Assembly (NCBI RefSeq): GCF_044704955.1
Contig: NC_091985.1
Span: forward strand, 204,290,001-204,354,000
Length of the DNA: 64,000 nt
Source of the DNA: Pristiophorus japonicus
Taxonomy: Eukaryota
Direction: 5' to 3'
Below the pieces are notes generated by a model that did no database searches, had not been told where the DNA came from, and was given only the letters and a program-made list of their open reading frames with translations. Positions within the stretch are counted from its first letter, which is position 1. Each line of letters begins with the position of its first letter. Below, in pieces: positions 6,788-58,635 of this stretch. Position numbers and translations under genes: made by a program.

Positions 6788-7734
6788 CACGGGGTCCCTT
6801 TAAGGGCTACACCCACCCCAAAGTCACAGGCCTTAATGGTCTTAATTGGCCTCTTGTATAATGACTGAGCAGAGGAGCCCTTAATGAGGCACACCTCTCC
6901 CCTAGTTGGCAATTGGGGAGGGGCCTTGCTCCCTCTGCTCAGTTGTCTTAAATTGTTTGTTTTTTAAATTAAATTTGGAAGGAAGGGCTCTCAGAGAGAG
7001 AGGGGAGAAACAGAGTAACAGAGAAAAGAGAGAGGGGGGTGGGAAGGGGGGGGGGCTGCGAGGGCAGGTCTCTCGTCGCAGCTGTGGGTGGGTGCACTCC
7101 CCAGATGGCAAAACACAAAAGTCTTTGAGGTGGTCTTCAGGTGGGGGGAGAAGATGTCTTCACCTGGGGTAGCTGGAGCCACCAGGCACTCCTAACGATC
7201 TTTAATTGGATGATTAAGAAAAACAACAATCTTCAGCCTGGTAGCTCCAGCTATCCCAGGCTAGGCAAATGTGGGGGGGGTGGGGGGGGTGGGGGGGGTT
7301 CCAATTGTGGGGGGGGCCTAGTTGTAAGCAAGGCCCCCACACACACTACCACACACACACACACCCCCCGCGATGTTCCGGCCCTCAGTGGTCTTCTTTC
7401 CTCCCCCCACCGATACAACAAAGTCTGTTTGGGGAAATGCACCCACACCCACCTGTAGAATGTAGAGTCTCCCTCCTTCCACACTGGATATTGTTGGTCT
7501 TTTCCCCCTCTCTCCAACTCCTTGCAGAAATGATAAAGTTGTTTAAAGTTTTCTGCTTTTTCCTCTCCCTCTGGATAAAAGTTGTGTTGAAGCCCCTTCC
7601 TTCCTTCTCCTCCTGGGCTGGTCTCAGGGCTCTCCAGGCAGGAGCTCAAGTTGCTAGCAGCTCCTCTCACTGCTCACAGCTCCAACTGAGCAGGACACGC
7701 CTCTACTGCTGCACAATTGGTCCTTGTGCTTGAA

Positions 7735-8150
7735 ACTCTTTTAGGAGTCTACCTGCAAAACATAAACAACATTAAACTGTGCCACCCGACCTGGGTGACA
7801 CAGCAGACATTTTCAAGCCCCTTTTTTTTTTTGGTTTTTGGTTTTTTTTTTTGGGGCGCTAAAATCAAATTTTTCCAGTGCCCCCTATAAAAGGGAAGGG
7901 GACACTAAAAGCACCGGCAATTAAAACAAATTAACTTTAAAACGTAAAATCAAATTAAAATTTGGTTGCCGGGCGTGATGATGCACTCCAGTCCCTCCGG
8001 TGCCCACCTCTCGCGGAAGGCCGCGAGCGTACCGGTGGACACCGCGTGCTCCATCTCCAAGGACACCCTGGACCGGATGTAAGAGCGGAAGAGAGGCAGG
8101 CAGTCAGGTTGAACGACCCCCTCGACCGCCCGCTGCCTGGACCGGCTGAT
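7735..8150 (-). mobile_element. 5'-truncated Tx1 copy A
   Basis: Matches 528-962 (3' UTR plus end of ORF2); bounded by spacers 7720-7734 and 8151-8165. Confidence 0.95.
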
Positions 8151-8165
8151 GTCCTTGTGCTTGAA

Positions 8166-8586
8166 ACTCTTTTAGGAGTCTACCTGCAAAACATAAACAA
8201 TATTAAACTGTGCCACCCGACCTGGGTGACACAGCAGACATTTTCAAGCCCCTTTTTTTTTTTTGGTTTTTTTTTTTTTTTTTTTTGGGGCGCTAAAATC
8301 AAATTTTTCCAGTGCCCCCTATAAAAGGAGAGGGGGACACTAAAAACACCGGCAATTAAAACAAATTAAACTTTAAAACGTAAAATCAAATTAAAATTTG
8401 GTTGCCGGGCGTGATGATGCACTCCAGTCCCTCCGGTGCCCACCTCTCGCGGAAGGCCGCGAGCGTACCGGTGGACACCGCGTGCTCCATCTCCAAGGAC
8501 ACCCTGGACCGGATGTAAGAGCGGAAGAGAGGCAGGCAGTCAGGTTGAACGACCCCCTCGACCGCCCGCTGCCTGGACCGGCTGAT
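8166..8586 (-). mobile_element. 5'-truncated Tx1 copy B
   Basis: Same truncation point (GGACCGGCTGAT); spacer at 8587-8601. Confidence 0.95.
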
Positions 8587-8601
8587 GTCCTTGTGCTTGA
8601 A

Positions 8602-9049
8602 ACTCTTTTAGAGTCTACCTGTGAAAACATAAAACAATAACGGTGCCACCCAACCTGGGTGACACTCCAGACATTTACAAGGCCCTTTTTTTCCCCCCCT
8701 TTTTTTTTTTTTTTTTTTTTTGTGTTTTTCTTTTTTTGGTTTTTTTTTTGGGCACTAAAATCACAATTTTTCCCCAGTGCCCCCTATAAAAGGGAAGGGG
8801 ACACTAAAAGCACCGGCAATTAAAACAAATTAACTTTAAAACGTAAAATCAAATTAAAATTTGGTTGCCGGGCGTGATGATGCACTCCAGTCCCTCCGGT
8901 GCCCACCTCTCGCGGAAGGCCGCGAGCGTACCGGTGGACACCGCGTGCTCCATCTCCAAGGACACCCTGGACCGGATGTAAGAGCGGAAGAGAGGCAGGC
9001 AGTCAGGTTGAACGACCCCCTCGACCGCCCGCTGCCTGGACCGGCTGAT
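8602..9049 (-). mobile_element. 5'-truncated Tx1 copy C (variant 3' UTR)
   Basis: Same truncation point; 3' UTR has diagnostic variants (TTTAGAG, GACACTCCAG, TTTACAAGG); spacer at 9050-9064. Confidence 0.95.
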
Positions 9050-9064
9050 GTCCTTGTGCTTGAA

Positions 9065-9520
9065 ACTCTTTTAGAGTCTACCTGCGAAAACATAAACATT
9101 AAACTGTGCCACCCGACCTGGGTGACACTCCAGACATTTACAAGGCCCATTTTTTTTTTTCCCCCCTTTTTTGTGTTTTTTTTTTTTTTGTTTTTTCTTT
9201 TTTTTTTGTTTTTTTTTTTTGGGCACTAAAATCACAATTTTTCCCCAGTGCCCCCTATAAAAGGGAAGGGGACACTAAAAGCACCGGCAATTAAAACAAA
9301 TTAACTTTAAAACGTAAAATCAAATTAAAATTTGGTTGCCGGGCGTGATGATGCACTCCAGTCCCTCCGGTGCCCACCTCTCGCGGAAGGCCGCGAGCGT
9401 ACCGGTGGACACCGCGTGCTCCATCTCCAAGGACACCCTGGACCGGATGTAAGAGCGGAAGAGAGGCAGGCAGTCAGGTTGAACGACCCCCTCGACCGCC
9501 CGCTGCCTGGACCGGCTGAT
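9065..9520 (-). mobile_element. 5'-truncated Tx1 copy D (variant 3' UTR)
   Basis: Same truncation point; followed by spacer 9521-9535, which runs directly into CR1 sequence. Confidence 0.95.
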
Positions 9521-10235
9521 GTCCTTGTGCTTGAATGACAGAAGGATAGTTTGCAGGTGAAGCAGGCAATCAGGAAGGTGAATGGAATGCTGGCCTTCAT
9601 TGCGAGAGGGATGGAGTACAAAAGCAGGGAGGTCCTTCTGCAACTGTATAGGGTATTGGTGAGGCCGCACCTGGAGTACTGCGTGCAGTTTTGGTCGCCT
9701 TACTTAAGGAAGGATATACTGGCTTTGGAGGGGGTACAGAGATGATTCACTTGGTTGATTCCGGAGATGAGGGGGTTACCTTATGATGATAGATTGAGTA
9801 GACTGGGTCTTTACTCGTTGGAGTTCAGAAGGATGAGGGGTGATCTTATAGAAACATTCAAAATCATGAAAGGGATCGACAAGATAGAGGCAGAGAGGTT
9901 GTTTCCACTGGTCGGGGAGACTAGAACTCGGGGGCACAGCCTCAAAATACGGGGGAGCCAATTTAAAACCGAGTTGAGAAGGAATTTCTTCTCCCAGAGG
10001 GTTGTGAATCTGTGGAATTCTCTGCCCAGGGAAGCAGTTGAGGCTAGCTCATTGAATGTATTCAAGTCACAGATAGATAGATTTTTAACCAATAAGGGAA
10101 TTAAGGGTTACGGGGACCAGCCGGATAAGTGGAGCTGAGTCCATAGCCAGATCAGCCATGATCTTATTGAATGGCGGAGCAGGCTCGAGGGGCTCGATGG
10201 CCTACTCCTGTTCCTAATTCTTATGTTCTTATGTA
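9521..10235 (+). mobile_element. CR1/HER1-type LINE 3' part (host of the Tx1 array)
   Basis: Encodes [41 protein letters not shown]; ends with GGCCTACTCCTG and a TTCTTATG-type tail. Confidence 0.93.
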
Positions 10236-13267: not shown

Positions 13268-13354
13268 AGCTTTCCAGAAAATTAAACTCCAGTCCAGTTA
13301 TAGGGATTAATTACATCAGTGGCAACAAACCTCTTCTGTCCAAGTGAACACGGT

Positions 13355-14437
13355 TCAGTCCTGGATGTGATTAACAGCAGAATCCACACCTGCAGTGTGA
13401 ACTCGCTGGTGTCTCAGTAGGTGGGACGACTGAATGAATCCCTTCCCACACTCAGAGCAGGTGAACGGCATCTCTGCAGTGTGAGTGCGTTGGTGTGCCA
13501 GCAGGTTGAATGAACGAGTGAATCTCTTCCCACACTCAGAACAGGTGAACGGCCTCTCCCCAGTGTGAGTGCGTTGGTGTGTCATCAGATCCTTTCTGCT
13601 TTTAAAGCTCTTCTCACAGTCAGGACATTTAAACGGTCTCTTATTGGTGTGAACAAGTTGGTGTTCAGTGAGCTGGGATGAACGAGTGCATGCCTTCCCA
13701 CACACAGAACAGGTAAAATGTTTCTCCCCGGTGTGAACAGGTTGGTGTGCAGTGAGCTGGCATGAACGAGCGAATTCCATACCACACATGGAACACGTGA
13801 ACGGCCTTTCCCCGGTGTGAACTCGCTGGTGTTCAGTGAGGATGGATGAACGAGCGAATCCCTTCCCACACACAGAGCAGATGAACGGCCTCTCCCCGCT
13901 GTGAACTCGCTGGTGTCTCAGCTGATGAGATGATTTAACAAACCCTTTCCCACATATGGAGCAGATGAATGGTCTCTCCCCAGTATGAACTCGCTGGTGT
14001 TCAGTGAGGCGTGAAGAACAAGTGAATTCCTTCCCACACACGGAGCAGATGAATGGTTTCTCCCCAGTGTGAACTCGCTGGTGCTCAGTGAGGTTGGATG
14101 ACTGCCTGAACCTCTTCTCGCAGTAAGAGCAACTGAACGGCCTCTCCCCAGTGTGAACTCGTTGGTGTTGATTTAGTTCACGAGAGGTTTTAAAGCTGTT
14201 CCCACAGTCAGAGCATTTAAAAGGTCTCTCATTCGTGTGAACTCGCTGGTGTGATAGAAGGTGAGCTGAACGAATGAATCCCTTCCCACACACAGGGCAG
14301 GTGAACGGCCTCTCCCCGGTGTGACGACGTCGATGAGTTTCCAGCTCAGAGGGGCAATTGAATCCCTTCCCACAATCTCCGCATTCCCATGGTTTCTCCG
14401 TGATGTGGGTGTCCTTGTGTCTCTCCAGGTTGTACAA
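13355..14437 (-). pseudogene. C2H2 zinc-finger gene with 12 fingers; open frame but probable start loss
   Basis: 12 CxxC-12-HxxxH units with TGERP linkers; the paralog's MEKPW start is ACG (TEKPW) here, with in-frame TGA stops upstream; acceptor-like TTTTACAG|G near 14620. Confidence 0.7.
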
Positions 14438-23396: not shown

Positions 23397-23870
23397 GGTA
23401 TTCGAAGGGGAGGATTTGCCAACGGGAAACTCAAATCGCACACCGCATCAAGATCTGACAGCGTCACTCGATTCATCGGGACCTGAATATCATCGGCCTC
23501 TCAATATAGAAGCAAAAAGCACCGTTGACAGTGGGGAGAAAGTGTACACGTGTTCTGTGTGTGGACGAGGCTTCAGCCAAATCTCTGGCCTATCGAGACA
23601 CAAGCGCAGTCACACCGGGGAGAGGCCGTTCACCTGCTCCGAGTGTGGGAAGGGATTCGCTCGTTCATCCCACCTTCTGATACACCAGCGAGTTCACACT
23701 GACGAGAGACCTTTTAAATGTCCGGACTGTGGGAACTGCTATAAAAGCTCTGGGGAACTGATGTACCATCAACATGTTCACACTGGGGAGAGACCGTTCA
23801 CCTGCTCTGAGTGTGGGAAGGGATTCACTCGTTCATCCATCCGCTGACACACCAGCGAGTTCACAAGTGA
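23397..23870 (+). pseudogene. C2H2 zinc-finger exon: 3 intact fingers plus 1 frameshifted
   Basis: TTTTACAG|G acceptor at 23396/23397; ATCCGCTG in the last finger indicates a 1-nt deletion relative to ATC CTG CTG. Confidence 0.75.
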
Positions 23871-30797: not shown

Positions 30798-31556
30798 TCA
30801 CTTGTGAACTCGCTGGTGTTTCAGCAGGTTGGATGAACAAGTGAATCCCTTCCCACACTCAGAGCAGGTGAACGGTCTCTCCCCAGTGTGAGTGCGTTGG
30901 TGCATCATCAGACTACTTCTGCTTTTAAAGCTCTTCTCACAATCAGAACAGTTAAAAGGCCTCTTATTAGTGTGAACAAGTTGGTGTGTAGTGAGATGGC
31001 ATGACTGAGTGAAACCCTTCCCACACTCTGAGCAGGTGAACGGTCTCTCCCCAGTGTGAGTGTGTTGGTGCATCATCAGCTGATTTCTGCTTTTAAAGCT
31101 CTTCTCACAGTCAGAGCATTTAAAAGGCCTCTTATTGGTGTGAACAAGGAGGTGGGCAGTGAGGCTGGATGACTGAGTGAATCCTTTCCCACACACAGAG
31201 CAGGTGAATGGCCTCTCCCCGGTGTGAACTCGCTGATGTCTCAGCAAATCCATTTTGATTTTAAAGCTTTTCTCACAGTCAGAACATTTAAAAGCTCCCT
31301 TATCAGAGTGAACAAGTTTATGGCGCCTCAGTTCCCCGGAACTTTTAAAGCATTTCCCGCAGTCCAAACATTTAAAAGGTCTCTCCGCAGTGTGAACTCG
31401 CTGGTGAGCTACAAGGCTGGATGAATGAGTGAATCCCTTCCCACACACCGAGCAGGTGAACGGCCTCTCCCCAGTGTGACTGCGTCGATGAATTTCCAGC
31501 TCAGATGGGTAACCGAATCCCTTCCCACAGTCACTACATTTCCACGGTTTCTCCAT
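30798..31556 (-). CDS. C2H2 zinc-finger protein, 9 fingers
   Basis: ATG in ACCATGG context; MEKPW followed by 9 intact fingers; degenerate fingers and an acceptor (~31911) upstream. Confidence 0.85.
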
Positions 31557-32304
31557 GGTGTGGCTATCCTTGTGTCTCTCCAGGTTGGACGATCAGTTAA
31601 AGCCTCGCCCACGCACATAACACGTTTGCAGTTTCTCCCCGCTGTACATGGTGCGATTTTTTTCAGGCTGTGTAACTGGTTAAAGCTCTTTCCGCAGTCA
31701 GTGCACTGGAACACTCTCACTCGGGTGTGTGTGTCTGGTGCTTTTCCAGTCACACTGATGTTTGAAATCTTTTCCCACAGACAAACATTTCTCCTTTCCC
31801 TTTCAAAGGCCGATGATATTCAGATCCTGATGCATCGAGTGACTCTGTCAGATCTTGACACAATGTTTGGTTCGAGTTCCCCGTCTGTAAATCCTCCCCT
31901 TATAATACCCTGTGAAAGGAGTTTGCAAAACTCATCACTGTAAGGACAGGACAGAAATTCAGAACAGACAATTCTAGTTTCTATGGAACATTCTTTTCTG
32001 TCTTGTTCCCCCCAAAGCTGTAAATCCCCATCCCTCCTCCCTGAGCGGAAATCCAAACCCATCGCACAATCTCCATCATTTCTTCCTTCTCGCTATTTTC
32101 TTCCTCCCCTGAAGGTGCTGACTCTGGCTGACTTCAGTTCCACACTCAATGGTTCCCCTCCCTCTCCTCCCCTGAAGGTGCTGACTCTATCTGGGTTCAG
32201 TTCTACACTGTATTCTACGGGTATGCTGAGCACCGAGTGTGTGCCTGAAATACGTTCTGGTCAGATACAGAGTAAAGCTCCCTCTATACTGTCCCATCAA
32301 ACAT

Positions 32305-45221: not shown

Positions 45222-45920
45222 ATGACTGACACTTCAGCCGCCGAAACAGCTCCTTCTGCCGCCGCCGCTCAAGCCAAGGCCCCCCGCAAGAAGAAGAAGG
45301 CAGCTCCCCGCTCCAAGCCAGCCGGCCCCACGTTGGGCGAACAGATCCTCAAGGTTGTGACCGATGGCAGCGATCGCAAGGGGATGTCTCTGGCCGCGAT
45401 AAAGAAGGCTCTGGCGGCCAAAGGCGTGGATGTGGAGAAGCGCGGGTCCCAGATCAGGTTCAGTATCAAGAGGAATGTGACAAATGGCTTCCTGGTGCAG
45501 ACCAAGGGCACGGGCGCCTCGGGCTCCTTCAAAGTCGCTAAGAAGGAAAACCAGGGGAAAGTGGGAAGGAAGGTGAATAAACCAGCAGCCAAGAACTCTC
45601 CAGCCAAGAAACCAGCAGCCAAGAAATCTCCAGCCAAGAAACCAGCAGCCAAGAAATCTCCGGCCAAGAAACCAGCAGCCAAGAAATCTCCGGCCAAGAA
45701 ACCAGCAGCCAAGAAATCTCCGGCCAAGAAAACGAGCACCAAGAAGGCGCTAACAGTAAAAAAGTCAGCGAAAGCGGCGGCTGGGAAGAAGGCGGCAGCG
45801 GCGAAGCCCAAGAGCCCCAAGAAGGCCTCGGGCGCAAAGGTGAAGGCGGCCAAAAAGGTGGGAAAACCGAGGGCCAAGGCCAAATCAACAAAACCCAAGA
45901 AACCAGCGCTCAAAAAGTAA
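45222..45920 (+). CDS. H1: Histone H1 (replication-dependent type)
   Basis: Globular domain ...SLAAIKKAL...[14 protein letters not shown] and Lys/Ala/Pro tail; H1-box AAACACA (~45072) and GC box upstream; 3' stem-loop. Confidence 0.95.
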
Positions 45921-45955
45921 ATAAAAAGTGCAACTTGTAAACATCTGAACCCAAA

Positions 45956-45971
45956 GGCTCTTCTCAGAGCC
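45956..45971 (+). terminator. Histone 3' stem-loop (H1)
   Basis: GGCTCTTCTCAGAGCC followed by ACCCA and a purine-rich AAAAGAG element. Confidence 0.95.
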
Positions 45972-46720
45972 ACCCACGCCTCTCAGAAAAGAGTTGATCC
46001 CCGAATCAAATGATCCCTGTCCCGGGGCCGGGCTCAGATTTCAGACAGAAATCATTGAACATGAAGCCAGGATCCCTGGTGACTCGCTGACATTGGCTGC
46101 ACCCACCCCTCCCCCAGTGTCTGCAATAAAACACACAGAGAATGGGATGTCCGGCCCGGGCCTCACTGTAACTGGGGATGTGTTCAGCTCCAGTCTCAGT
46201 TCCTGGTCATTGTCATTTCACAGATTCAGGGGGAGAGTCTGTGAGACGGTGACACTGGCGGAGATACCCCGCCTCACAACTCAAACCCCAAACACCACAT
46301 TCTCCAAATCAGCTGGAATAAGGTGTTTGAAAACTGCTGAACCCGTCTGTGAGAGGAAGTGTGGGGAGATGGAACAAGGTCTGAGATTGACAGGGAAGGG
46401 GCTGTATATAGGCGGGAATATTCGCGATTGTTAATTGTAGCGGGACTTTATTTAAAAGCTTCAGGTTCCTGGAAGCTTTGAATATAAATTCCGAGTCTGT
46501 TTCGGTTCTATTGTCGGAAAACGGTTTGAAATTAGCGGCTGCAGAAAGCTGGAGCGGAGCTGGAAGATCAGAGGCCGCTCTCTGCTCTGTCTGTCAATCT
46601 TGACTATGTCTCCTCCCCTTCCCGCCTCTCTCACTCTGCGCTTTCTCAGTCAGGTCGGCTCCGGCTCTATAAAAAGGAGCCGGCAGCCGTTCACTTCTCA
46701 TTCAGCGGCAGTTTAAGTGA

Positions 46721-47044
<324 letters not shown>

Positions 47045-47890
47045 ATAACTCGACCCTTTTCCCCCAAACACAACACAAAGGCTCTTCTAAGAGCCACCCA
47101 CCGGCACACAGAGAGAGCAGCGACCTGGGGATCGGAGCGCGGACAGTTTGGTTGGGAAATGGTTTCGGCTGTTTAATTAATGGAAAGAAAGGTTTGGATT
47201 TATATTGCGCCTTTCACGACCACCGAACGTCTCAAGACAGAAAAATAGAAAATAGGTGCAGGAGTAGGCCATTCGGCCCTTCGAGCCTGCACCGCCATTC
47301 AACAAGATCACAGCTGATCACCTCCCCACGCCCCCTCCACACTCCCCAACCCCCGCCCCCCCCCCCCTCAGCCGCAAGGACCACATCCAATGAACAAGAC
47401 CAATGAAGTACTTTTGGAGTGTAGTCTCTAGGAATATGGGAATTATTAAATATTTTACAACTATTGTAAATATGAGAGATCAGAAACTCCGGCTGACAGT
47501 CACAATTACCGGGCAGGATACACAGTCCTCTTTACACATTACAGTCTCCCCTCACAGATAATTCCTGTCATGTGAGGTTTCTGTGTGAGAATCGGTTAAG
47601 TGGGACGGCACTGGCGGGATCGATGCGGGACTTTATGTTTACAGGAAGCAGTGACCGCGGATTTATTCCCGCCCGGTACAGACGGATCAGGGAATGGAAC
47701 ATAATTCAAACCGGAATGTGACAGAATGGGATTGGTGACTTATAATGGGGCACAATCGCCGTTATAAAGAGCGGGATTCTTAAATTGCTGGCGGGAAATT
47801 AGATTTTATTTAATCTCTGTTGGTTGATATTCTGAAATTGGCGGGCTTTTTGAAAATTGACCAAATGTCAGTTTCAGTTCAGCCAATTAG

Positions 47891-48478
<588 letters not shown>

Positions 48479-49580
48479 ACTCCCCCTGCCCCGGCTCCAA
48501 GCTTCAGCACCAAGTGCAACAACGGCTCTTTTCAGAGCCACCAAATCAGCAAAGGAAAGAGCTGCGATCTACTGTAACCAGAGCTTCGTGTTGTTCATTA
48601 ACCCATTGTAGGGACGGGCAGAGGGTGTGGGACTGATTACTGATCGTGTGTTCATATACCAGCTCGGTTCACATGGGAATTATTGACGATTAACTGGTGA
48701 GTCTTTTAATATTTTCAGAAACTGACATCGGCTTTGCGTCGCTCTGACCTCGAGTTCCCCGGGGCAGAGCACAGATTTCCTCATTCGGTGTTGCCGGAGA
48801 ATGGGGGCAGGTAGATCTGGGAAGCACTGCAATGGACTCGGGTCCTGTATGTGTGCATCGCTCGCTGCTCCAGTGCGGTCTAAACTGACCGGCTTAGCGG
48901 AGAAATACAGAGCCCGGGAACGGCCAGAGCTCCCGAGAACAAAATCAGCATTCAAACTATCTCAAACCAGACCAGAATTAAACTAGGCCCTTTTATTACT
49001 ACATTAATTCATCATTGCCGACTCTCGTTTTCAGACAGATTAAAGAATATTTAAAGAACCGGTGGCAGTATTTATACAATTGTTGAGTGACAACTGTAGT
49101 TCAATTATTCGCTGTTAACGGGAAGTGTATGTGTGAGCAGAGAACCGTAATGCAGAGACCGGGAACTGAAAACTCCCGCGTACGGATAAGGGGAAAGCCA
49201 TTTAGGACTGAGATGAGGAGAAACTTATTCACTCAGAGTTGTTAACCTGTGGAATTCCCTACCGCAGAGTTGTTGATGCCAGTTCGTTACATATATTCAA
49301 GAGGGAGTTAAATGTGGCCCTTATGGCTAAAGGGATATGGAGAGAAAGCAGGAAAGGGGTACTGAGGGAATAATCAGCTATGATCTTATTGAATGGTGGT
49401 GCAGGCTCGAAGGCCTACTCCTGCACCTATTTTCTATGTTTCCAGGTCTAAAACAGGCCCATCTATCGGTACATGAATTAAAGGGCTCTGACTCCATTAA
49501 GACAGTAAGCATCCCCTTCACAGATACTGTGGGTGGCTCTGAAAAGAGCCTTTGGGTTATTAGATTAAATCTTGTCCGCT

Positions 49581-49976
<396 letters not shown>

Positions 49977-50923
49977 TCACAAGTTCAGACAAAGAATGAG
50001 AAACTCCTCCCACATCTGCCCTTCTTATACATTCTGGAGGGATGCAGGGAGCGAACTTGTGATTGGTCGCTCTGAAGTGGATTTCATTGGTCTTTTCCGC
50101 TGACCAATCACCGTCTGTTTAGCCCGCCAATGTAAACAGGGCGAAAATTACTGTTCGACTGCCAACGAATCTTCAATTTCAAAAACCCCGCCAATAATTT
50201 TTACAATGCGGATTATGTTAATAAATTCAACATTAGCCAAAGATTTCCACACTTTTTATTTCCTTTTGCCGTATTCTTTATTGCCTTCCAAATTCCAGGA
50301 TGTTACAATCAGGATTAAATTCGGGTTCAGTTTCAAACGTTCTGTAACGGGACACATTCCAGCTCAATCTTTGTACAATTTGGGAATCACAGATCATGGA
50401 TCGATCATCCGCACAGGCGGCAGTGAGACCAGAACTGGGAGTTCTTCTGTGAAAAGAGGGACAGAGGGTTCAAACTCCCTGTTCTGGTCTCTGTAAGAAC
50501 TCCCAGTCTGGGCTGTTGCACTCGGAATCTCGGATTAATAAGCGGGTTGACCCGAACTAGAATTTTTTTTATATTGTAAAGGGTTTGAGAGAGAATGAGG
50601 TGACTAAAGTCTGAGTTTCACCTCCTAAAACAAGATCATAATTCATTGGCAGGCGACCAGGGACAGTGTGTGCAGTTTACTGGGAGGAAAATTCATCAGA
50701 GAAGCTAAGGTTGAACCGGACAGTAAAACCGCTTATCTGAGAATTCAAATCTAAATCTACAGCTGGAATTTTAAATGCTGTCAAACACACTTGCTCAGGA
50801 AATAACTACAGTAAATTGAGTTTAAAGGGTGATGTGTTTGTGCAGCTCTTTCAGAGACGTTGTGGGTGGCTCTTAAAAGAGCCGTTGTGTTTAGGGTTTG
50901 TTGTGTCAGGACAACGTGGAGTT

Positions 50924-51301
50924 TTACTTGGAGCTGGTGTACTTGGTCACCGCCTTTGTCCCTTCCGATACGGCGTGCTTGGCCAGCTCCCCGGGTAGCA
51001 GCAGACGCACGGCGGTCTGGATCTCCCGGGAGCTGATGGTGCGGCGCTTGTTGTAATGGGCCAGGCGGGAAGCCTCACCTGCGATGCGCTCGAAAATATC
51101 GTTCACAAAAGAGTTCATGATGCCCATGGCCTTGGAGGAGATGCCGGTGTCGGGGTGAACCTGCTTCATCACTTTGTAGATGTAGATGGAGTAACTCTCC
51201 TTCCTCGACTTCCTGCGCTTCTTACCGCCCTTTGGTGGTGTTTTCTTGATCACTTTCTTGGCGCCTTTCTTGGCAGTAACTGATTTCTTCTCTTCAGGCA
51301 T
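50924..51301 (-). CDS. H2B: Histone H2B
   Basis: MPEEKK...[11 protein letters not shown]...KYTSSK; TATATAA, octamer-like ATTAGCAT and CCAAT upstream; stem-loop at 50868-50883. Confidence 0.97.
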
Positions 51302-51824
51302 CGTCTTGTTCAATCCAACCCAGACATGACGTAAATTTAGCTCGGAGCTCGCATTATATAGGCAGCCCCACACTCCGCCCACAGCCCTATGCTAATGACG
51401 GATGGGTGAAGGCAACAATTGTGATTGGTTCACTCACTGCGTTGTCAATTTCTATTGTTCTGTAATTCTCTGATTGGATGTTTAAAGAGACCAATCAGAT
51501 TTACTGCTCGCCACAATCTCAAATTCTTCAATTAGGTCATCAGTTACATCCCCTCCCGACTTATACTCTGTTCTTTATCGATCTAGATTTCTACATGTTT
51601 GACAGACATTGACCGGTTTGTAACCGAGATTGCCTGAGGGCCACTTCTGGTCAGGACTTGGAAGTCTATGAGGGCAAAAGACCCTCAATGTCCTTCCTCC
51701 CTGATGCTGCCTTCCTCCCACCGTTTAATTAAACACCTTTCTTATCTTTCACTGCTGTAACTACATTAGTTGTTTCAGTGTTACCTTCACCTGGAATATG
51801 CCGTACCTTCTGTGCCGTAAAGGG

Positions 51825-52110
51825 CCTATTTCCCTTAGCACAGGAGGCATAAATTTAAAGTAATTGGTAGAAGATTTAGAGGGGAAATATCTTCACGCAG
51901 AGGGTGGCTGCGCTCTGGAACTCACTGCCTGAAAGGGTGGTAGAGGCAGAAACCCTCACCACATTTAAAACTACTTGGATGTGCACTTGAAGTGCCGTAA
52001 CCTGCAGGGTTACGGACCTAGAGCTGGAAAGTGGGATTCGGCTGGATAGCCTTTTGTTGGCCGGCACGGACACGATGGGCCGAAGTGGCCTCATTCCGTG
52101 TTGTAAGCTT
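51825..52110 (+). mobile_element. CR1 3' fragment
   Basis: Similar to 16320-16610. Confidence 0.8.
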
Positions 52111-52242
52111 CGATGATAAATATCTATAATTCTGAAACTAAAAGGATATTCCGTCCATCGTGCATATGCTGATTTAAAATATCTATCGATACCGAACAAA
52201 ATGTAAATGAACTATATCTCCCTCCCTCCCCCCGTGAGGCGG

Positions 52243-52384
52243 TGGGTGGGACTTAGAAGAGCCTTTGCTTTGTGCTTGGGGGAAGAGAGTCCCGTTGAAT
52301 CCATAGAAAGTGCGGCCCTGCCGTTTCAGAGTGTACACCACATCCATGGCAGTGACCGTCTTGCGCTTGGCTGCTCAGTGTAGG
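52243..52384 (-). pseudogene. H4: H4 3' fragment with deletions and a damaged stem-loop
   Basis: [25 protein letters not shown] remnant. Confidence 0.9.
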
Positions 52385-52811
52385 CCTAAACTGACCGGCT
52401 TAGGAGAAAATACACAGCCCGGAACGACTGGAGCTCCCGGGAACAGAACCAGCATTCAAACTCTCAAACCAGACCAGAATTAAACTGGGCCCTTTTAATA
52501 ACCGCCGACTTTCTTCATACAGCTTTCATTGATAAGATTAAATATTTAGGGAACCGGTTGCGGTATTTATACAAGTTTTGAGTCTCTGACAACTGTAGTT
52601 TAATTATTAGCTGCTAACTAAAACAGTTTGTGAGCAGAAAACCATAATGCAGATACCAGGAACTGAAAACTCCCGCATACAGGTCTGAAATAGACCAATT
52701 TATCGGTATCTGAACTCAAGGTCTCCATTAATACAGTAAGGAGCCCTTTCACAGATACTGTGAGTGGCTCTGAAAAGAGCCTTTGGGTTATTAGTTTAAA
52801 TCTTGTCCGCT

Positions 52812-53255
<444 letters not shown>

Positions 53256-54586
53256 TTATCCCTTCTGGAGGGATGCAGGGAGCGAACTTGTGATTGGTCA
53301 CTCTGTCGTGGATTTCATTGGCCGTTTCCGATGACCAATCACAGCCTGTCTAGTCCACCAATGAAAGGAGGGCGGAAATTACTGGTTCCCAACAGCCAGA
53401 ACCTAACGATTTTTTAAATTCAAAAATCCCGCCAATAATTGTGAAAATTGCGGATTGAGTTAGTAACTTCACCATTAGCCAAATACTTCAAAACACTTTT
53501 TGTTTCCTTTTGTCTTATTCCATATTTCCCTTGCAAATTCCAGCCTGTAACAATTAGGATTAAATTCGGCTTCAGCTTCAAACTGTCTGTAACGGGCGGG
53601 ACTCAGTCCCCACTGATTCTGTAACGGGACACATTCCAGCTCCATCTTCGTAAAAGTGAACTTGTTTTCACAGGAGCTGCTGTGGGAGTGAGACCAGAAC
53701 TGAGAGTCCTTCTGTAAAAAGAGAAGAGGGACAGGGTGTTCAAACTGCCCCTGTTCCAGTCTCTAAGAACTCCCATTCTGGGTTGTTACACTGCGGGGAG
53801 TCTCGGGTTAATAAACGGACTGAGCGCAACGGAATAAAAAAAACTCGTAAAAAGGGCTTGAGTGAGAATGTGACTGAAATCGGAGTTTCCCCGCCCCCCA
53901 AAATAAATTCGTCGGCAGGCGCTGTGAATGAACGGGTCTGAGAACAAAGGGAAAGCGACCAGGGACCGTGTTTGTAGTTTACTCACTGCAGGAAATTCCA
54001 GCGACGCCAAGGTCAAGCCGGTCAGTGAAGCTACTTATGAGAATTCAAAACTAAATCTACAGCTGGAACTACAAAGGTTTTCACACACACTTGTTCAGGA
54101 AATAATTACAGTAAATTCAGTCTAAAGGGTGATGTTTGTGCAGCTCTTTCAATTATGTTGTGGGTGGCTCTTAAAAGAGCCGTTGTGTTTGGGGTTTGTT
54201 CTGTCAGGACAGCGTGGAGTTTTACTTGGAGCTGGTGTATTTGGTCACCGCCTTTGACCCTTCCGACACGGCGTGCTTGGCCAGCTCCCCGGGCAGCAGC
54301 AGGCGCACGGCGGTCTGGATCTCCCGGGAACTGATGGTGCGACGCTTGTTGTAATGGGCCAGGCGGGAAGCCTCACCCGCAATGCGCTCGAAAATATTAT
54401 TCACAAACGAGTTCATGATGCCCATGGCCTTGGAGGAGATGCCGGTGTCGGGGTGAACCTGCTTCATCACTTTGTAGATGTAGATAGCATAACTCTCCTT
54501 CCTCGAATTTCGGCGCTTCTTGCCGCCATTTGGTGATGTTTTTTTGATGACTTTTTTGGCACCCTTTTTCGAAGCTGGTTTCTTTT

Positions 54587-54896
54587 TTTATTATTCGTTG
54601 CCAATCTTTCCAATTCTTTGTGAGATCATAAACGCCAGAGGTCACCTTGCGCCCATCAAGGATCACTCTGCGCCAATGCTCTTAGCCAAAAGGCCTCGAG
54701 CCCAAGCACCGTTCCTGGAAGTACTGCAATATCAGGTTCGTGCCATGGAGGTGGATGGGTCAAGCCCCACACCCACCTCCTATTTCCAAAAAGCATAAGA
54801 GAACCACCTTCCTGATCCAGGGAGAACCACTTTCTGGTCATGGTTATTCCCCTGTCAGGTCAGTTACGCATGATCTTAGCCAAAAAACCGAGAAGC
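54587..54896 (-). mobile_element. U2/U1-snRNA-derived SINE-like element, copy 1
   Basis: Minus strand: U2 5' end, U1 5' region, U2 3' half, second U2 stem-loop I, unique body, A-rich tail; flanked by target duplication. Confidence 0.88.
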
Positions 54897-54907
54897 TGGT
54901 TTCTTTT

Positions 54908-55258
54908 TTTTAAAATTCGTAGCCAATCGTTCCAATTCTTTGTCAAATCACAAACGCCAGAGGTCACCTTGGGCCCATTCAAGGATCACTCTGCGCCAAT
55001 GCTCTTAGCCAAAAGGCCTAGAGCCACTGCACTGTTCCTGGAAGTACTGCAATACCAGGTTCGTGCCATGGAGGTGGATAGGTCAGGTCCCCCACACACC
55101 TCCGTGGAGGTGGATGGGTCAAACCACCCCACCCACCTCCTATTTCCAAAAAAGCAAGCATATACCTTCCTGATCCAGGGAGAACCACCTTGGGGTTATG
55201 GTGGTTACTCCCCTGTCAGGTCAGTTACGCATGATCTTAGCCAAAAGGCCGAGAAGCG
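54908..55258 (-). mobile_element. U2/U1-snRNA-derived SINE-like element, copy 2
   Basis: Starts CGCTTCTCGGCCTTTTGGCTAAGATCA (U2 nt 3-29); contains CCTGGTATTGCAGTACTTCCAGGAAC (U2 stem-loop IV). Confidence 0.9.
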
Positions 55259-55858
55259 GGTTTCTTTTCCTCAGGCATCGTCTTGTTCAGTCAGGTAGAT
55301 ATGAAGGAAATTTTGCTCCGGGCTCGCATTATGTAGGTAGCCCCACACTCTGCCCACAACCTTATGCTAATGACGGATGGGTGAAGGCAATGACTGTGAT
55401 TGGTTCATTGGCTGCGTTGTCAATTTCCATTGTTCTGTATCTCTCTGATTGGTATCTTTAAACATCCAATCAGATTTATTGTTTGCCACAATCTCAAATT
55501 CTTAAATTAGGTCATCAATGACATCCCCTCCCGATTTATATTCCGTTTTTGTTTCTATTCTGCTCTCAGGCAAAAATGGTTAATGACGGCCGGACTTATG
55601 AGGAAGGTTCTTTCACGTTTTTTTCTATATATACATTCAATAATCTGAACAGCTGTGTTTGTCGATCTACATTTCTACATGTTCGAGACATTGACCGGTT
55701 TGTAACCGAGATTTCCTGAGGGTCACTTCTGATCAGGACTTGGGAGTCCTTCTATGAGGGCAAGGGACCCTCACTGTTCTTCTGCCCTGATGCTGCCTTC
55801 CTCCCATCGTTTAATTCAACACCTTTCTTATCTGTCACTGCTGTAACATGGATGTAAC

Positions 55859-57120
55859 AGCATGGATTTATGAAGGGGAAGTCATGTTTGACAAATTTGC
55901 TGGAATTCTTTGAGGATGTCACGCACAGGGTGGATAATGGGGAAGTAGTGGATGTGGTGTATTTGGACTTCCAGAACGCATTTGACAAGGTGCCACATAA
56001 AAGGTTACTGACTGCACAAGATAAAAGTTCACGGGGTTGGGGGTAATATATTAGCATGGATAGAGGATTGGCTAACAAACAGAAACCAGAGAGTGGGGAT
56101 AAATGGTTCATTCCCGGGTTGGCAATCAGTAACCAAGGGGATGCCACAGGGATCAGTGCTAGGACCCCAACTATTTATGATCTATATTAACGACTTGGAA
56201 GAAGGGACCGAGAGTAACGCAGCCAAGTTTGCTGACGATACAAAGATAGGAGGAAAAGCAATGGGTGAGGAGGACACAAATTCTGCAAAAGGACATAGAC
56301 AGGCTAAGTGAGTGAGCAAGGATTTGGCAGATGGAGTATAATATTGGAAAGTGTGAGGTCATGCTCTTTGATTTGTGCAAGTGCAAGTTATTATTTTAAT
56401 GGTGAAAGATTGCAAAGTGCTGCAGTGCAGCGGGACCTGGGGGTACTTGTGCATGAAACACAAAAGGTTAGTATGCAGGTACAGCAAGTGATCAGGAAGG
56501 CCAATGGAATCTGGCCTTTATTGCAAAGGGGATGGAGTATAAAAGCAGGGAAGTCTTGCTACAGTTGTACAGGGTATTGGTGAGGCCACACCTGGAATAC
56601 TTCATGCAGTTTTGGTTTCTATATTTACAAAAAGGATATACTTGCTTTGGAGGCAGTTCAGAGAAGTTTCACAAGGTTGATTCCAGAATGAGGGGGTTGA
56701 CTTGAGGAAAGGTAGAGTAGGTTGGGCTTCTACTCATTGGAATTCAGAAGAATGAGAGGTGATCTTATCGAAACATATAAGATTATGAGGGGGCTTAACA
56801 AGGTGGATGCAGAGAGGATGTTTCCACTGCTAGGGGAAACTAGAACTAGAGGGCTTAATCTTAGAATAAGAGGTCGCACATTTAAAACTGAGATGAGGAG
56901 AAATTTCTTCTCTGAGGATTGTGAATCTGTGGAATTCGCTGCCTCAGAGAGCTGGGACATTGAATAAAATTAAGACAGAAACAGACAGTTTCTTAATGAT
57001 AAGGGAATATGGGGCAGGGAAGTAGACCAGAGTCCATGATCGTATTAAATGGCGGAGCAGGCTCGAGGGGCCGTATGGCCTACATTTGCTCCTATTTCTT
57101 ATGTTTTTATGTTTTTATGT
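55859..57120 (+). mobile_element. CR1 RT/3' fragment (frameshifted)
   Basis: PQGSVLGPQLF, KFADDTK, QRDLGVLVHETQ, RRMRGDLIE. Confidence 0.93.
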
Positions 57121-57396
57121 TCTAACTACATTAGTTTTTTCAGTATTACCTTCATCTGGAATGCCCCGTAAATGTCTATGATTTGAAGACTAAAAGGACA
57201 TTCTGTCCATCGTTTATATGCTGATTTAAAACACCTAACACCACAATATAGATCTTGGCAAAAAACATATCTATACAGAACAAAATGTAAATCAACGATC
57301 TCGCCCCCGTTCCCCAGGTCACTGCTCTCTCTGTGAAGAGGTGGGTGGCTCTGAGAAGAGCCTTTGTGTTGTGTTTGGGGGAAAGGGTCACGTTAT

Positions 57397-57701
<305 letters not shown>

Positions 57702-58635
57702 GATGATTCTTTACTGAAATCGCCGCTGAATGTTAATCTCTCGCCTTACCCATTGTCTGTTGAGACCACCAATGAAACGAGGGTGGAAATTCCTGTCCTC
57801 AACAGTCACACCTCGAACTATTTTTAATTTCAAAAACACCGCCAATAATTTTTTAAAGTGCGGATTATGTTAATAAATGCACCATTAGCCAAAGGTTTAC
57901 AAACAGGTTTTACTTCCTTTTATTTTATTCCATATTTCCCTTACTAATTCCAGGCTGTTACAATCAAAATTAAATTCGCGTTCACTGTCAATCTGTCTGT
58001 AACGGACGGCAATCAATCCCCACTGATTCTGTAACAGGACACATTCCAGCTCAAACTGTGTAAAAGTTGGGAATCACAAATCATGGATTGATCTTCCGCA
58101 CAGGCGGGAGTGAGACCAGAACTGGGAGCCCTTATGTGAAAAGGGAAGAGGGATAGAGTGTTCACACTGCTCCCGTTCTGGTCTCTGTACGAACTCCCAT
58201 TCTGGGTTTTTACATTGCAGGGAGTCCCGAGTTAATAAACAGATTGACCGTAACAGGAATTGAAAAATAAATTTGTAAAGGGCTTGCGAGAGAATGAGGT
58301 GACTGAAATCTGAGCCTCATTTCCTAAACAAGCTCTTAATTCCTCGGCAGGCGCTGTAAATGGGAACGAGCGACAAGGAATCGTGTTTGTAGCTTGAATG
58401 GTGGGAAATTCAACAGCGGTCCTAACGTCGAACCAGACAGTGAAGCTGCTTATGAGAATTCAAAACTAACTCCACAGCTGGAACTGCAAAGGTTCCCAAA
58501 CACACTTGTTCAGGAAATAATTACAGAATATTGAGTCTAAAGGGTGATGCGCTTTAGGTCTTTCAGAGAGGTTGTGGGTGGCTCTTAAAAGAGCCGTTGT
58601 GTTTCTGTTTTTTTCTCTCAGGACAGCGTGGAGTT

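Follow-up and report, generated by a model that had tools for sequence, protein, structure and literature searches.

SINEU-like elements built from U2 and U1 RNA in Pristiophorus japonicus, and a possible role for U2 genes in their spread

How does an element assembled from pieces of spliceosomal RNA come to lie, twice over, inside a histone gene, and how might it be transcribed and copied? The question is raised by a 64,000-nucleotide stretch of the Pristiophorus japonicus genome (RefSeq assembly GCF_044704955.1, contig NC_091985.1, positions 204,290,001 to 204,354,000 of the forward strand; 'the window', hereafter), whose minus strand carries two elements composed of parts of the small nuclear RNAs (snRNAs) U2 and U1. 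SINEs (short interspersed elements) are defined by internal RNA polymerase III (Pol III) promoters, and snRNA-headed SINEs are without them; a captured U2 promoter would explain the expression of such promoter-less elements. The element, we find, is a young, dispersed, non-coding, A-tailed retroposon, a SINE resembling the SINEU families of crocodilians. Judged from its sequence and its insertion sites, it is probably copied by the enzymes of a Keno-type Tx1 LINE (long interspersed element), from source copies that sit within U2 genes and would be driven by the U2 promoter.

A family assembled from U2 and U1

Copies are 310–350 bp long, with reading frames that are only short or antisense, and are laid out alike: U2 nucleotides (nt) 1–35, U1 3–51, a repeat of U1 28–47, the 3' half of U2, a second U2 fragment (7–29), an 85-nt body, and an A tail. 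Measured against the U1 and U2 genes of the same genome, the head of the upstream window copy (copy A) matches U2 nt 3–35 at 94%; U1 nt 3–57 are matched at 79% in copy A and at 84% in the downstream copy (copy B), where the partial U1 repeat corresponds to U1 28–46 at 95% identity. Farther along copy A, U2 109–186 are matched at 73%, with stem-loop III duplicated, and the second U2 fragment, nt 7–29, at 91%. The Rfam U2 profile scores the two copies at 56.8 and 58.9 bits (gathering threshold, 46); the U1 profile finds a weak match within copy B (21.8 bits, E 0.22), under the cut-off because only the 5' piece of U1 is present. No tRNA, 5S or 7SL head accompanies these segments, the Rfam scan, made without a separate search for A and B boxes, returning only U2 and U1 there, and internal T runs of 4–6 argue against transcription by Pol III.

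An earlier reading of this DNA, made from the sequence only, had described two U2-U1-U2 chimeras at this place, complete with the partial U1 repeat and the second U2 fragment, and the comparison with same-genome genes bears it out. On two finer points it was half right: body and A tail are both present, but the body is nearer to 85 nt than to the 100 it gave; and the U run of the supposed U2 Sm-like site is there, but the A ahead of it is a C, so the site is altered.

The family is large. Across the 5.9-Gb assembly, an exact pattern for the 3' body has at least 4,957 matches and one for the U2/U1 junction at least 2,227, both being lower bounds. The same patterns reversed have 0, and with thousands of dispersed copies the resemblance cannot be due to chance. 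A DNA search returned 2,011 candidates, and the 40 that were scored, spread over many contigs, are 93–100% identical. Exact target-site duplications of 6–23 bp (median 12.5) flank 54 of 94 arrays under a strict script rule, and the median divergence of 209 copies from the column majority is 1.25%. Two to four copies stand together in 33 of 101 arrays, a set that includes paralogs and top-ranked matches, and in eight of the 44 unselected loci. The chimeric copies fall into six head types, in which likeness to U1 declines stepwise (scores 37, 33, 31, 27, 16, 13). Shared junctions and subfamilies make this a real family, rather than a sum of independent retrocopies.

An older sister family has no U1 at all. 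Its members comprise an almost complete U2, another fragment of the U2 5' end, and a body that is shorter and has the same hairpin (examples are L018, L022, L071, L080, L084, L089, L277–L279 and L289). Both families use an insertion hot spot, precise to the base, at the end of the Gypsy RNase H region, in antisense, for which 121 exact filled sites occur genome-wide. Among 30 such loci (L202–L231), 28 hold the SINE family (24 chimeric, 4 U2-only), one holds a Tx1 3' piece, and one a bare tail. Hitch-hiking on Gypsy amplification was considered and rejected, as the 30 loci carry different subfamilies and junctions. When the flanks of the 101 arrays were clustered, without a Mariner reference, the shared sites proved to be U2, Gypsy and common LINE repeats. 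Two oddities were seen in passing: the A tails of many copies (L026, L099, L112 and others) contain runs of T, and at L074 one copy has a stem-loop III segment that has grown into a minisatellite of more than 1 kb.

In predicted folds, each full copy forms a series of distinct hairpins (z -2.9 and -6.6), and the pairs of stem-loop IV are kept. These data do not show selection on structure: of 19 predicted pairs just 2 have changed on both sides, and stem III is out of register in the alignment. A working snRNA is unlikely, since the Sm site and both splicing-active sequences—the branch-pairing region of U2 and the 5' splice-site-pairing end of U1—are no longer intact; the retrocopy of a new functional snRNA, which the sequence-only reading had kept as its alternative, loses most of its appeal accordingly. 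The RNA intermediate may have left marks of another kind. One paralog of the histone cluster in the window (L151, G000:C4006) holds a third SINE copy, 5' of copy A, that is truncated at its 5' end and absent from the other four paralogs; it differs from the column majority at 13 of 160 columns, and all 13 differences are A-to-G on the element strand, which we count as an editing-like mark. At L099, four of six differences are A-to-G. These marks, in two of 209 copies, look like adenosine-to-inosine (A-to-I) editing by ADAR of RNA before its reverse transcription.

The Keno-type LINE and the U2 genes

A Pfam search finds many Tx1-type LINE copies in the genome. The full-length partner encodes an ORF1 (open reading frame 1) with ZCCHC3-like and zinc-knuckle domains and an ORF2 with apurinic/apyrimidinic (AP) endonuclease, reverse transcriptase and zf-RVT domains (PF03372, the endonuclease, at E 2.5e-08; also PF00078 and PF13966). 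Its 3' flank begins at U2 nt 38/39, the same flank that is given for Keno in the accessible parts of PMC6136364 and PMC4640811; the sequence-only reading had pointed to Keno, and rightly. An A-run followed by U2 from nt 39 has 90 pattern matches, mostly in U2 arrays. Forty-two junction rows, from 34 hand-picked loci, were classified. Canonical U2 genes account for 25 of them (13 chimeric SINE, 8 LINE, 3 U2-only SINE, 1 unclassified); the other 17 fall within variants or older U2-only SINE copies (11 chimeric, 4 LINE, 2 U2-only). In the canonical genes, all eight LINE rows are AP-endonuclease Tx1.

SINE and LINE also meet elsewhere. At L201 the order is SINE, tail, duplication, LINE, tail, duplication, SINE; the LINE is full-length and starts with U2 nt 2–44, and it shares one duplication with the SINE, as Tx1 and SINE do at L026 and L080. 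Thirty-eight exact LINE 5' ends carry U2 nt ~25–44. We also observed, on about 21 of 30 U2-headed Tx1 copies (L232–L261), a 5' extension of 15–60 bases, the end of which resembles the U2 upstream flank.

The six bases that precede 51 dispersed SINE nicks (three sites that lay in trains or had duplications shorter than 7 bp being left out) match U2 nt 32–37 at 2.41 of six positions, against a background of 1.54 +/- 0.14 that reached this value in 0 of 5000 draws; the dispersed sites thus keep a trace of the U2 target. Pure A tails with duplications of 6–23 bp fit the L1/Tx1 group. The SINE shares its insertion sites with the Keno-type LINE and is therefore likely to be copied by the enzymes of that LINE; we hold this mobilization to be very probable. 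The sequence-only reading's call of a dispersed snRNA-derived SINE moved by L1/Tx1 machinery is upheld by the duplications, the A tails and the sites shared with a Tx1-clade LINE.

The genome has two types of U2 genes with unrelated flanks, one at 69.62–69.73 Mb of G000:C19 and on C1003, C1832, C1868 and C4309 (C19-type), the other at 111.0–113.8 Mb of C9 (C9-type). Full-length Keno and the SINE have invaded the C19 array heavily; its 764-bp unit includes a microsatellite. An invaded C19-type gene reads from its upstream flank into the SINE at +1, through the A tail to U2 38–191, and on to the 3' flank: the U2-like head of the youngest subfamily stands in the place of U2 nt 1–38, so that the SINE begins at the first base of U2. 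A LINE likewise takes the place of the U2 5' end at L263, and the older U2-only family occupies the same site in the other U2 array. The U2 upstream flank is joined to the youngest head in 17 exact matches, all in U2 arrays (C19 and three unplaced contigs). Of the 401 youngest-type heads genome-wide, some 384 are dispersed, and none of these carries the 11-base flank. Dispersed copies of this subfamily are 98.5–100% identical to the array copy (L011 124/124, L024 226/227, L027 227/228, L212 215/216, L224 337/341). By eye, about 10 of 30 unselected SINE copies start at U2 nt 1–2.

A SINE that lies in U2 genes at the exact Keno site likely borrows both the enzymes of the LINE and the on-switch of the gene. 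Read in this way, the arrangement points to copies lodged within U2 genes as the likely sources, and transcription of the SINE from captured U2 promoters seems to us a somewhat better than even prospect. The steps might run as follows. Tx1 ORF2 protein would carry out target-primed reverse transcription, recognizing the A tail, not a shared 3' sequence; the end of the complementary DNA (cDNA) would anneal to the target's U2 5' end, so that heads are exchanged; and a hybrid RNA would then be driven by the U2 promoter. U2 heads would be gained repeatedly, by target capture, when truncated copies inserted into U2 sequence, and the older U2-only family would have arisen by the joining of a short U2-headed element just behind a whole U2 gene. 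The U1 pieces may have been acquired by template switching to U1 RNA, and then have decayed. The full cycle would thus pass through host U2 genes: Keno enzymes place a promoter-less SINE at U2 nt 38/39, a head that mimics U2 takes the place of the gene's own 5' end, the U2 promoter expresses the SINE, each generation gains heads by target capture, and the A-to-I-edited, hairpin-rich RNA keeps the protein-binding loops of U2 and U1. For this cycle, taken whole, we consider the balance of probability level.

Parts of this history can be read from the copies. The U2-only copies have a short internal deletion in U2, bases from the 3' flank of a C19-type gene and a homologous body, and the most basal form retains the last U2 bases together with the first flank bases of such a gene. 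Truncated SINEs stand behind a captured U2 head at L283, L284 and L291, so new U2 heads can arise without template switching. No SINE or LINE was found in 12 U1 loci examined as a possible source of the U1 piece, and insertion into U1 genes was rejected as its origin; the exact U2/U1 joint is ambiguous, because the U1 upstream flank resembles head nt 26–36. Trains of copies grow at the 5' side, where new copies enter: at L071 and L084 the upstream duplication takes in the start of the downstream copy. On the same evidence, repeated cleavage on the 3' side of older copies was rejected. A ranking of the subfamilies by U1 decay, with U2-only as oldest, predicts the order of copies for every one of the 18 informative pairs that 44 trains supply, although pairs that share a train are not independent of each other. 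The window pair, head type H3 upstream of head type H1, is one of the 18. A different arrangement occurs in the C9-type array at L146 and L147. A truncated Keno-type copy is there enclosed by a complete U2 gene with some 65 flank bases on one side and by U2 from nt 38 on the other, in what looks like a target duplication of 220 bases; such an event could have made a U2-only SINE.

Several observations weigh against this reading, and are best taken together. Forty of the 94 arrays lack an exact duplication under the strict rule; seven dispersed Tx1 sites match U2 32–37 at just 1.14 of six positions; and the Gypsy hot spot, with all its filled sites, bears no resemblance to the U2 target. The SINE has no 3' sequence similarity to any of 30 Tx1 loci, so a shared 3' tail was rejected, and the match between the body and LINE 3' ends for which the sequence-only reading had suggested looking did not appear. 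The extension on U2-headed LINE copies, shared and lying upstream of U2's first base (by eye), rules out a start at +1 for those copies at least. Among the 17 in-gene copies there are just two variants, almost the same in sequence, which array homogenization may have spread from between one and three insertions; the unplaced contigs may be second haplotypes, and the copies may have received the SINE rather than supplied it. The count behind the U2 flank covered just the youngest head type, and no in-gene copy of H1 or H3 was seen; nor was 3' transduction of canonical U2 found in 11 dispersed junction loci. As to snRNA promoter signals, another check suggested at the outset, the upstream flank of the C19-type array has, by eye, no clear match to the -60 element common to U1 genes and C9-type U2 genes, although a motif like the 3' box does occur.

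Could the in-gene copies be dead ends, then, with the same SINE and the same Tx1 partner, the RNA coming from read-through of host promoters and the heads from template switching? Upstream promoters and template switching have been proposed for crocodilian SINEU (PMC4494074), and the U1 pieces seem to need template switching anyway, to judge from the 12 U1 genes fetched. The plain C19 flank and the LINE extensions suit such a scheme, as do copies in transcribed settings, the H2B gene of the window for example. It accounts poorly for copies that begin at U2 nt 1–2 and for the absence of the 11-base flank from every dispersed youngest-type head; and the array-resident subfamily is the youngest, with near-identical dispersed copies, while the older family lies at the same site in the other array. 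We regard it as unlikely, though deserving of serious thought. We are far more doubtful that the SINE is mobilized by another LINE (Utopia, RTE, L2 or CR1), or by a set of Tx1 families of which one targets Gypsy. The U2 site is also that of Utopia, according to the accessible part of PMC4640811, and no genome-wide Utopia search was made here; a more distant Tx1 tail (75%, L220) lies at the Gypsy hot spot, and SINE and Tx1 have no 3' tail in common. Nevertheless, the LINE rows at the U2 site are uniformly Tx1, single duplications are common to SINE and Tx1 at three loci, and the tails and duplications are of the L1/Tx1 sort.

That a functional chimeric snRNA gene has merely shed retrocopies is very improbable. 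The modular hairpins fold well, stem-loop IV is preserved, and the in-gene copies look like genes; set against this, these copies carry genomic A tails, the U1 5' splice-site-pairing end is mutated and then, in younger types, deleted, the branch-pairing region is lost, the Sm site is altered, and subfamilies turn over fast. A local chimeric retrocopy, duplicated in tandem, can be put aside as already refuted: five near-identical histone-cluster paralogs do share the window insertion, but thousands of copies with unrelated flanks are dispersed elsewhere, so that the finding named by the sequence-only reading as refuting it, the existence of just these two, does not hold; and the two belong to different subfamilies. 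The Keno-type partner, with U2 genes as candidate sources, is, with moderate confidence, the reading we retain.

The histone locus

What happened in the window itself (Table 1) can be told with some precision. Positions 45222–58600 form a histone cluster with H1, H4, H3, two H2A, and H2B genes and nine 3' stem-loops. The two SINE copies were inserted in tandem into an H2B gene, which is cut after codon 8 and whose reading frame now ends with a stop at codon 14; a 16-bp target-site duplication lies between the copies and on either side of them, three times in all. Neither the duplication nor the H2B host gene had been noted in the sequence-only reading. The same insertion is common to at least five histone-cluster paralogs or haplotypes (the window and four others), which are 98–99% identical. 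The best explanation is that these were insertions of relaxed specificity that killed the H2B gene before the cluster was duplicated.

Table 1. Features of the interrupted H2B gene and its two SINE copies (window positions)
Feature	Positions	Strand	Remarks
H2B 5' end, interrupted	55253..55278	-	start codon 55278-55276, first 8 codons; from translation; intact paralog 51301-50924
Target-site duplication, copy 1	55253..55268	-	16 bp; final 6 bases shared with U2 nt 3-8 of the SINE head (microhomology)
SINE copy A	54908..55258	-	type H3; younger, 5' in train
Copy A, U2 nt 3-35 head	55226..55258	-	stem-loop I; contains the H2B-ending stop codon, 55239-55237
Copy A, U1 nt 3-51 and repeat	55164..55225	-	repeat shortened, from U1 nt 28 onward
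Copy A, altered Sm site and U2 stem-loops	55029..55156	-	duplicated stem-loop III 55140-55106 and 55103-55070; stem-loop IV 55066-55029
Copy A, second U2 5' fragment	55000..55022	-	nt 7-29
Copy A, unique body	54908..54999	-	hairpin-forming; short A tail
Target-site duplication, copy 2	54892..54907	-	between the SINE copies
SINE copy B	54587..54896	-	type H1; older, 3' in train
Copy B, U2 head	54896-54865	-	
Copy B, U1	54864-54816 and 54817-54799	-	
Copy B, Sm-like site	54795-54783	-	
Copy B, stem-loop III	54780-54747	-	
Copy B, stem-loop IV	54743-54706	-	
Copy B, second U2 fragment	54695-54677	-	
Copy B, body	54676-54593	-	followed by A-rich tail
Target-site duplication, copy 3	54571..54586	-	
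Rest of H2B coding sequence	54222..54570	-	Pfam Histone, E 1.4e-22
Histone 3' stem-loop of broken H2B gene	54141..54186	-	Rfam Histone3, 38.4 bits

Elsewhere in the window, five A-tailed elements of 300–470 bp, four of them in tandem, lie on the minus strand at 613–912 and 7720–9535. They are unrelated at the DNA level to the Keno-type LINE, and one match to them lies beside a U1 gene (L035); they are probably the 3' ends of another L1/Tx1-type LINE. At 13353–14408, 23595–23842 and 30826–31563 there are arrays of 84-bp repeats, in both orientations, typical of C2H2 zinc-finger genes.

Relation to known systems

SINEU-1, -2 and -3 have been described as 'found only from crocodilians' (Kojima 2015, PMC4494074, the one paper on snRNA-headed SINEs), with mobilization by Tx1 inferred and transcription left as an explicit open question. 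The present family has the features of that class: U1- and U2-derived heads, added repeatedly, with a partial duplication inside the U1 piece; a non-coding sequence of less than 500 bp with internal T runs, an A tail and nothing LINE-like at its 3' end; copies in tandem about a duplication; a Tx1 partner, inferred from shared targets; and Tx1 families that themselves have snRNA heads. It differs in its host, which by the source record lies outside the crocodilians, and in its architecture, with U1 inside a U2 frame, after which come another U2 fragment and what appears to be a distinct body. It is also much younger, the shared targets seen for it are U2 genes and the Gypsy site, Mariner-N4 being the one described for SINEU, and candidate source copies can be seen within U2 genes. 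The literature searched, with Repbase, Dfam and subscription journals, in which the family may already be catalogued, outside its scope, contained no snRNA-headed SINE from cartilaginous fishes and no Keno-dependent SINE; the accessible parts of PMC5381603 and PMC5786205 have nothing on fishes.

Should the proposed scheme be right, snRNA-headed SINEs would here be recognized outside crocodilians for the first time, and the U2-gene cycle would offer a general answer to the origin and transcription of the SINEU class, suggesting that such elements originate independently wherever a U2-targeting LINE exists. The named loci, with an snRNA-headed SINE under a U2 upstream region at the Keno site and beside its probable LINE partner, make the transcription question directly testable, and the subfamilies form a dated series from a U2-only ancestor to the present. 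The genome also presents a still-young family that is eroding both U2 arrays and histone genes.

Keno itself is a U2-specific LINE of the Tx1 clade (Kojima and Fujiwara 2004, as cited in PMC4494074, PMC4640811 and PMC6136364), and the partner LINE resembles it in its AP endonuclease and U2 3' flank; the specificity of the partner is relaxed, with many dispersed copies, and the SINE is its non-autonomous passenger. Utopia, by the available text of PMC4640811, has the same U2 site, and its reptile families show weakened specificity and U2-like off-target sites; it is, in contrast, autonomous, with a restriction-like endonuclease, and no LINE of its type was seen among the eight LINE rows in canonical U2 genes, no genome-wide search for it having been made. 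The SINE would be like R2, too, in being a promoter-less element dependent on transcription of the multicopy RNA gene that it targets. Short derivatives of R2 in ribosomal DNA (rDNA) are called SIDE. R2 is co-transcribed with its rDNA target (cited in the accessible part of PMC4494074). The difference lies in the manner of release: R2 is freed by a ribozyme from a Pol I transcript, whereas here the head would mimic the 5' end of the target itself, under what is probably a Pol II promoter of the snRNA type.
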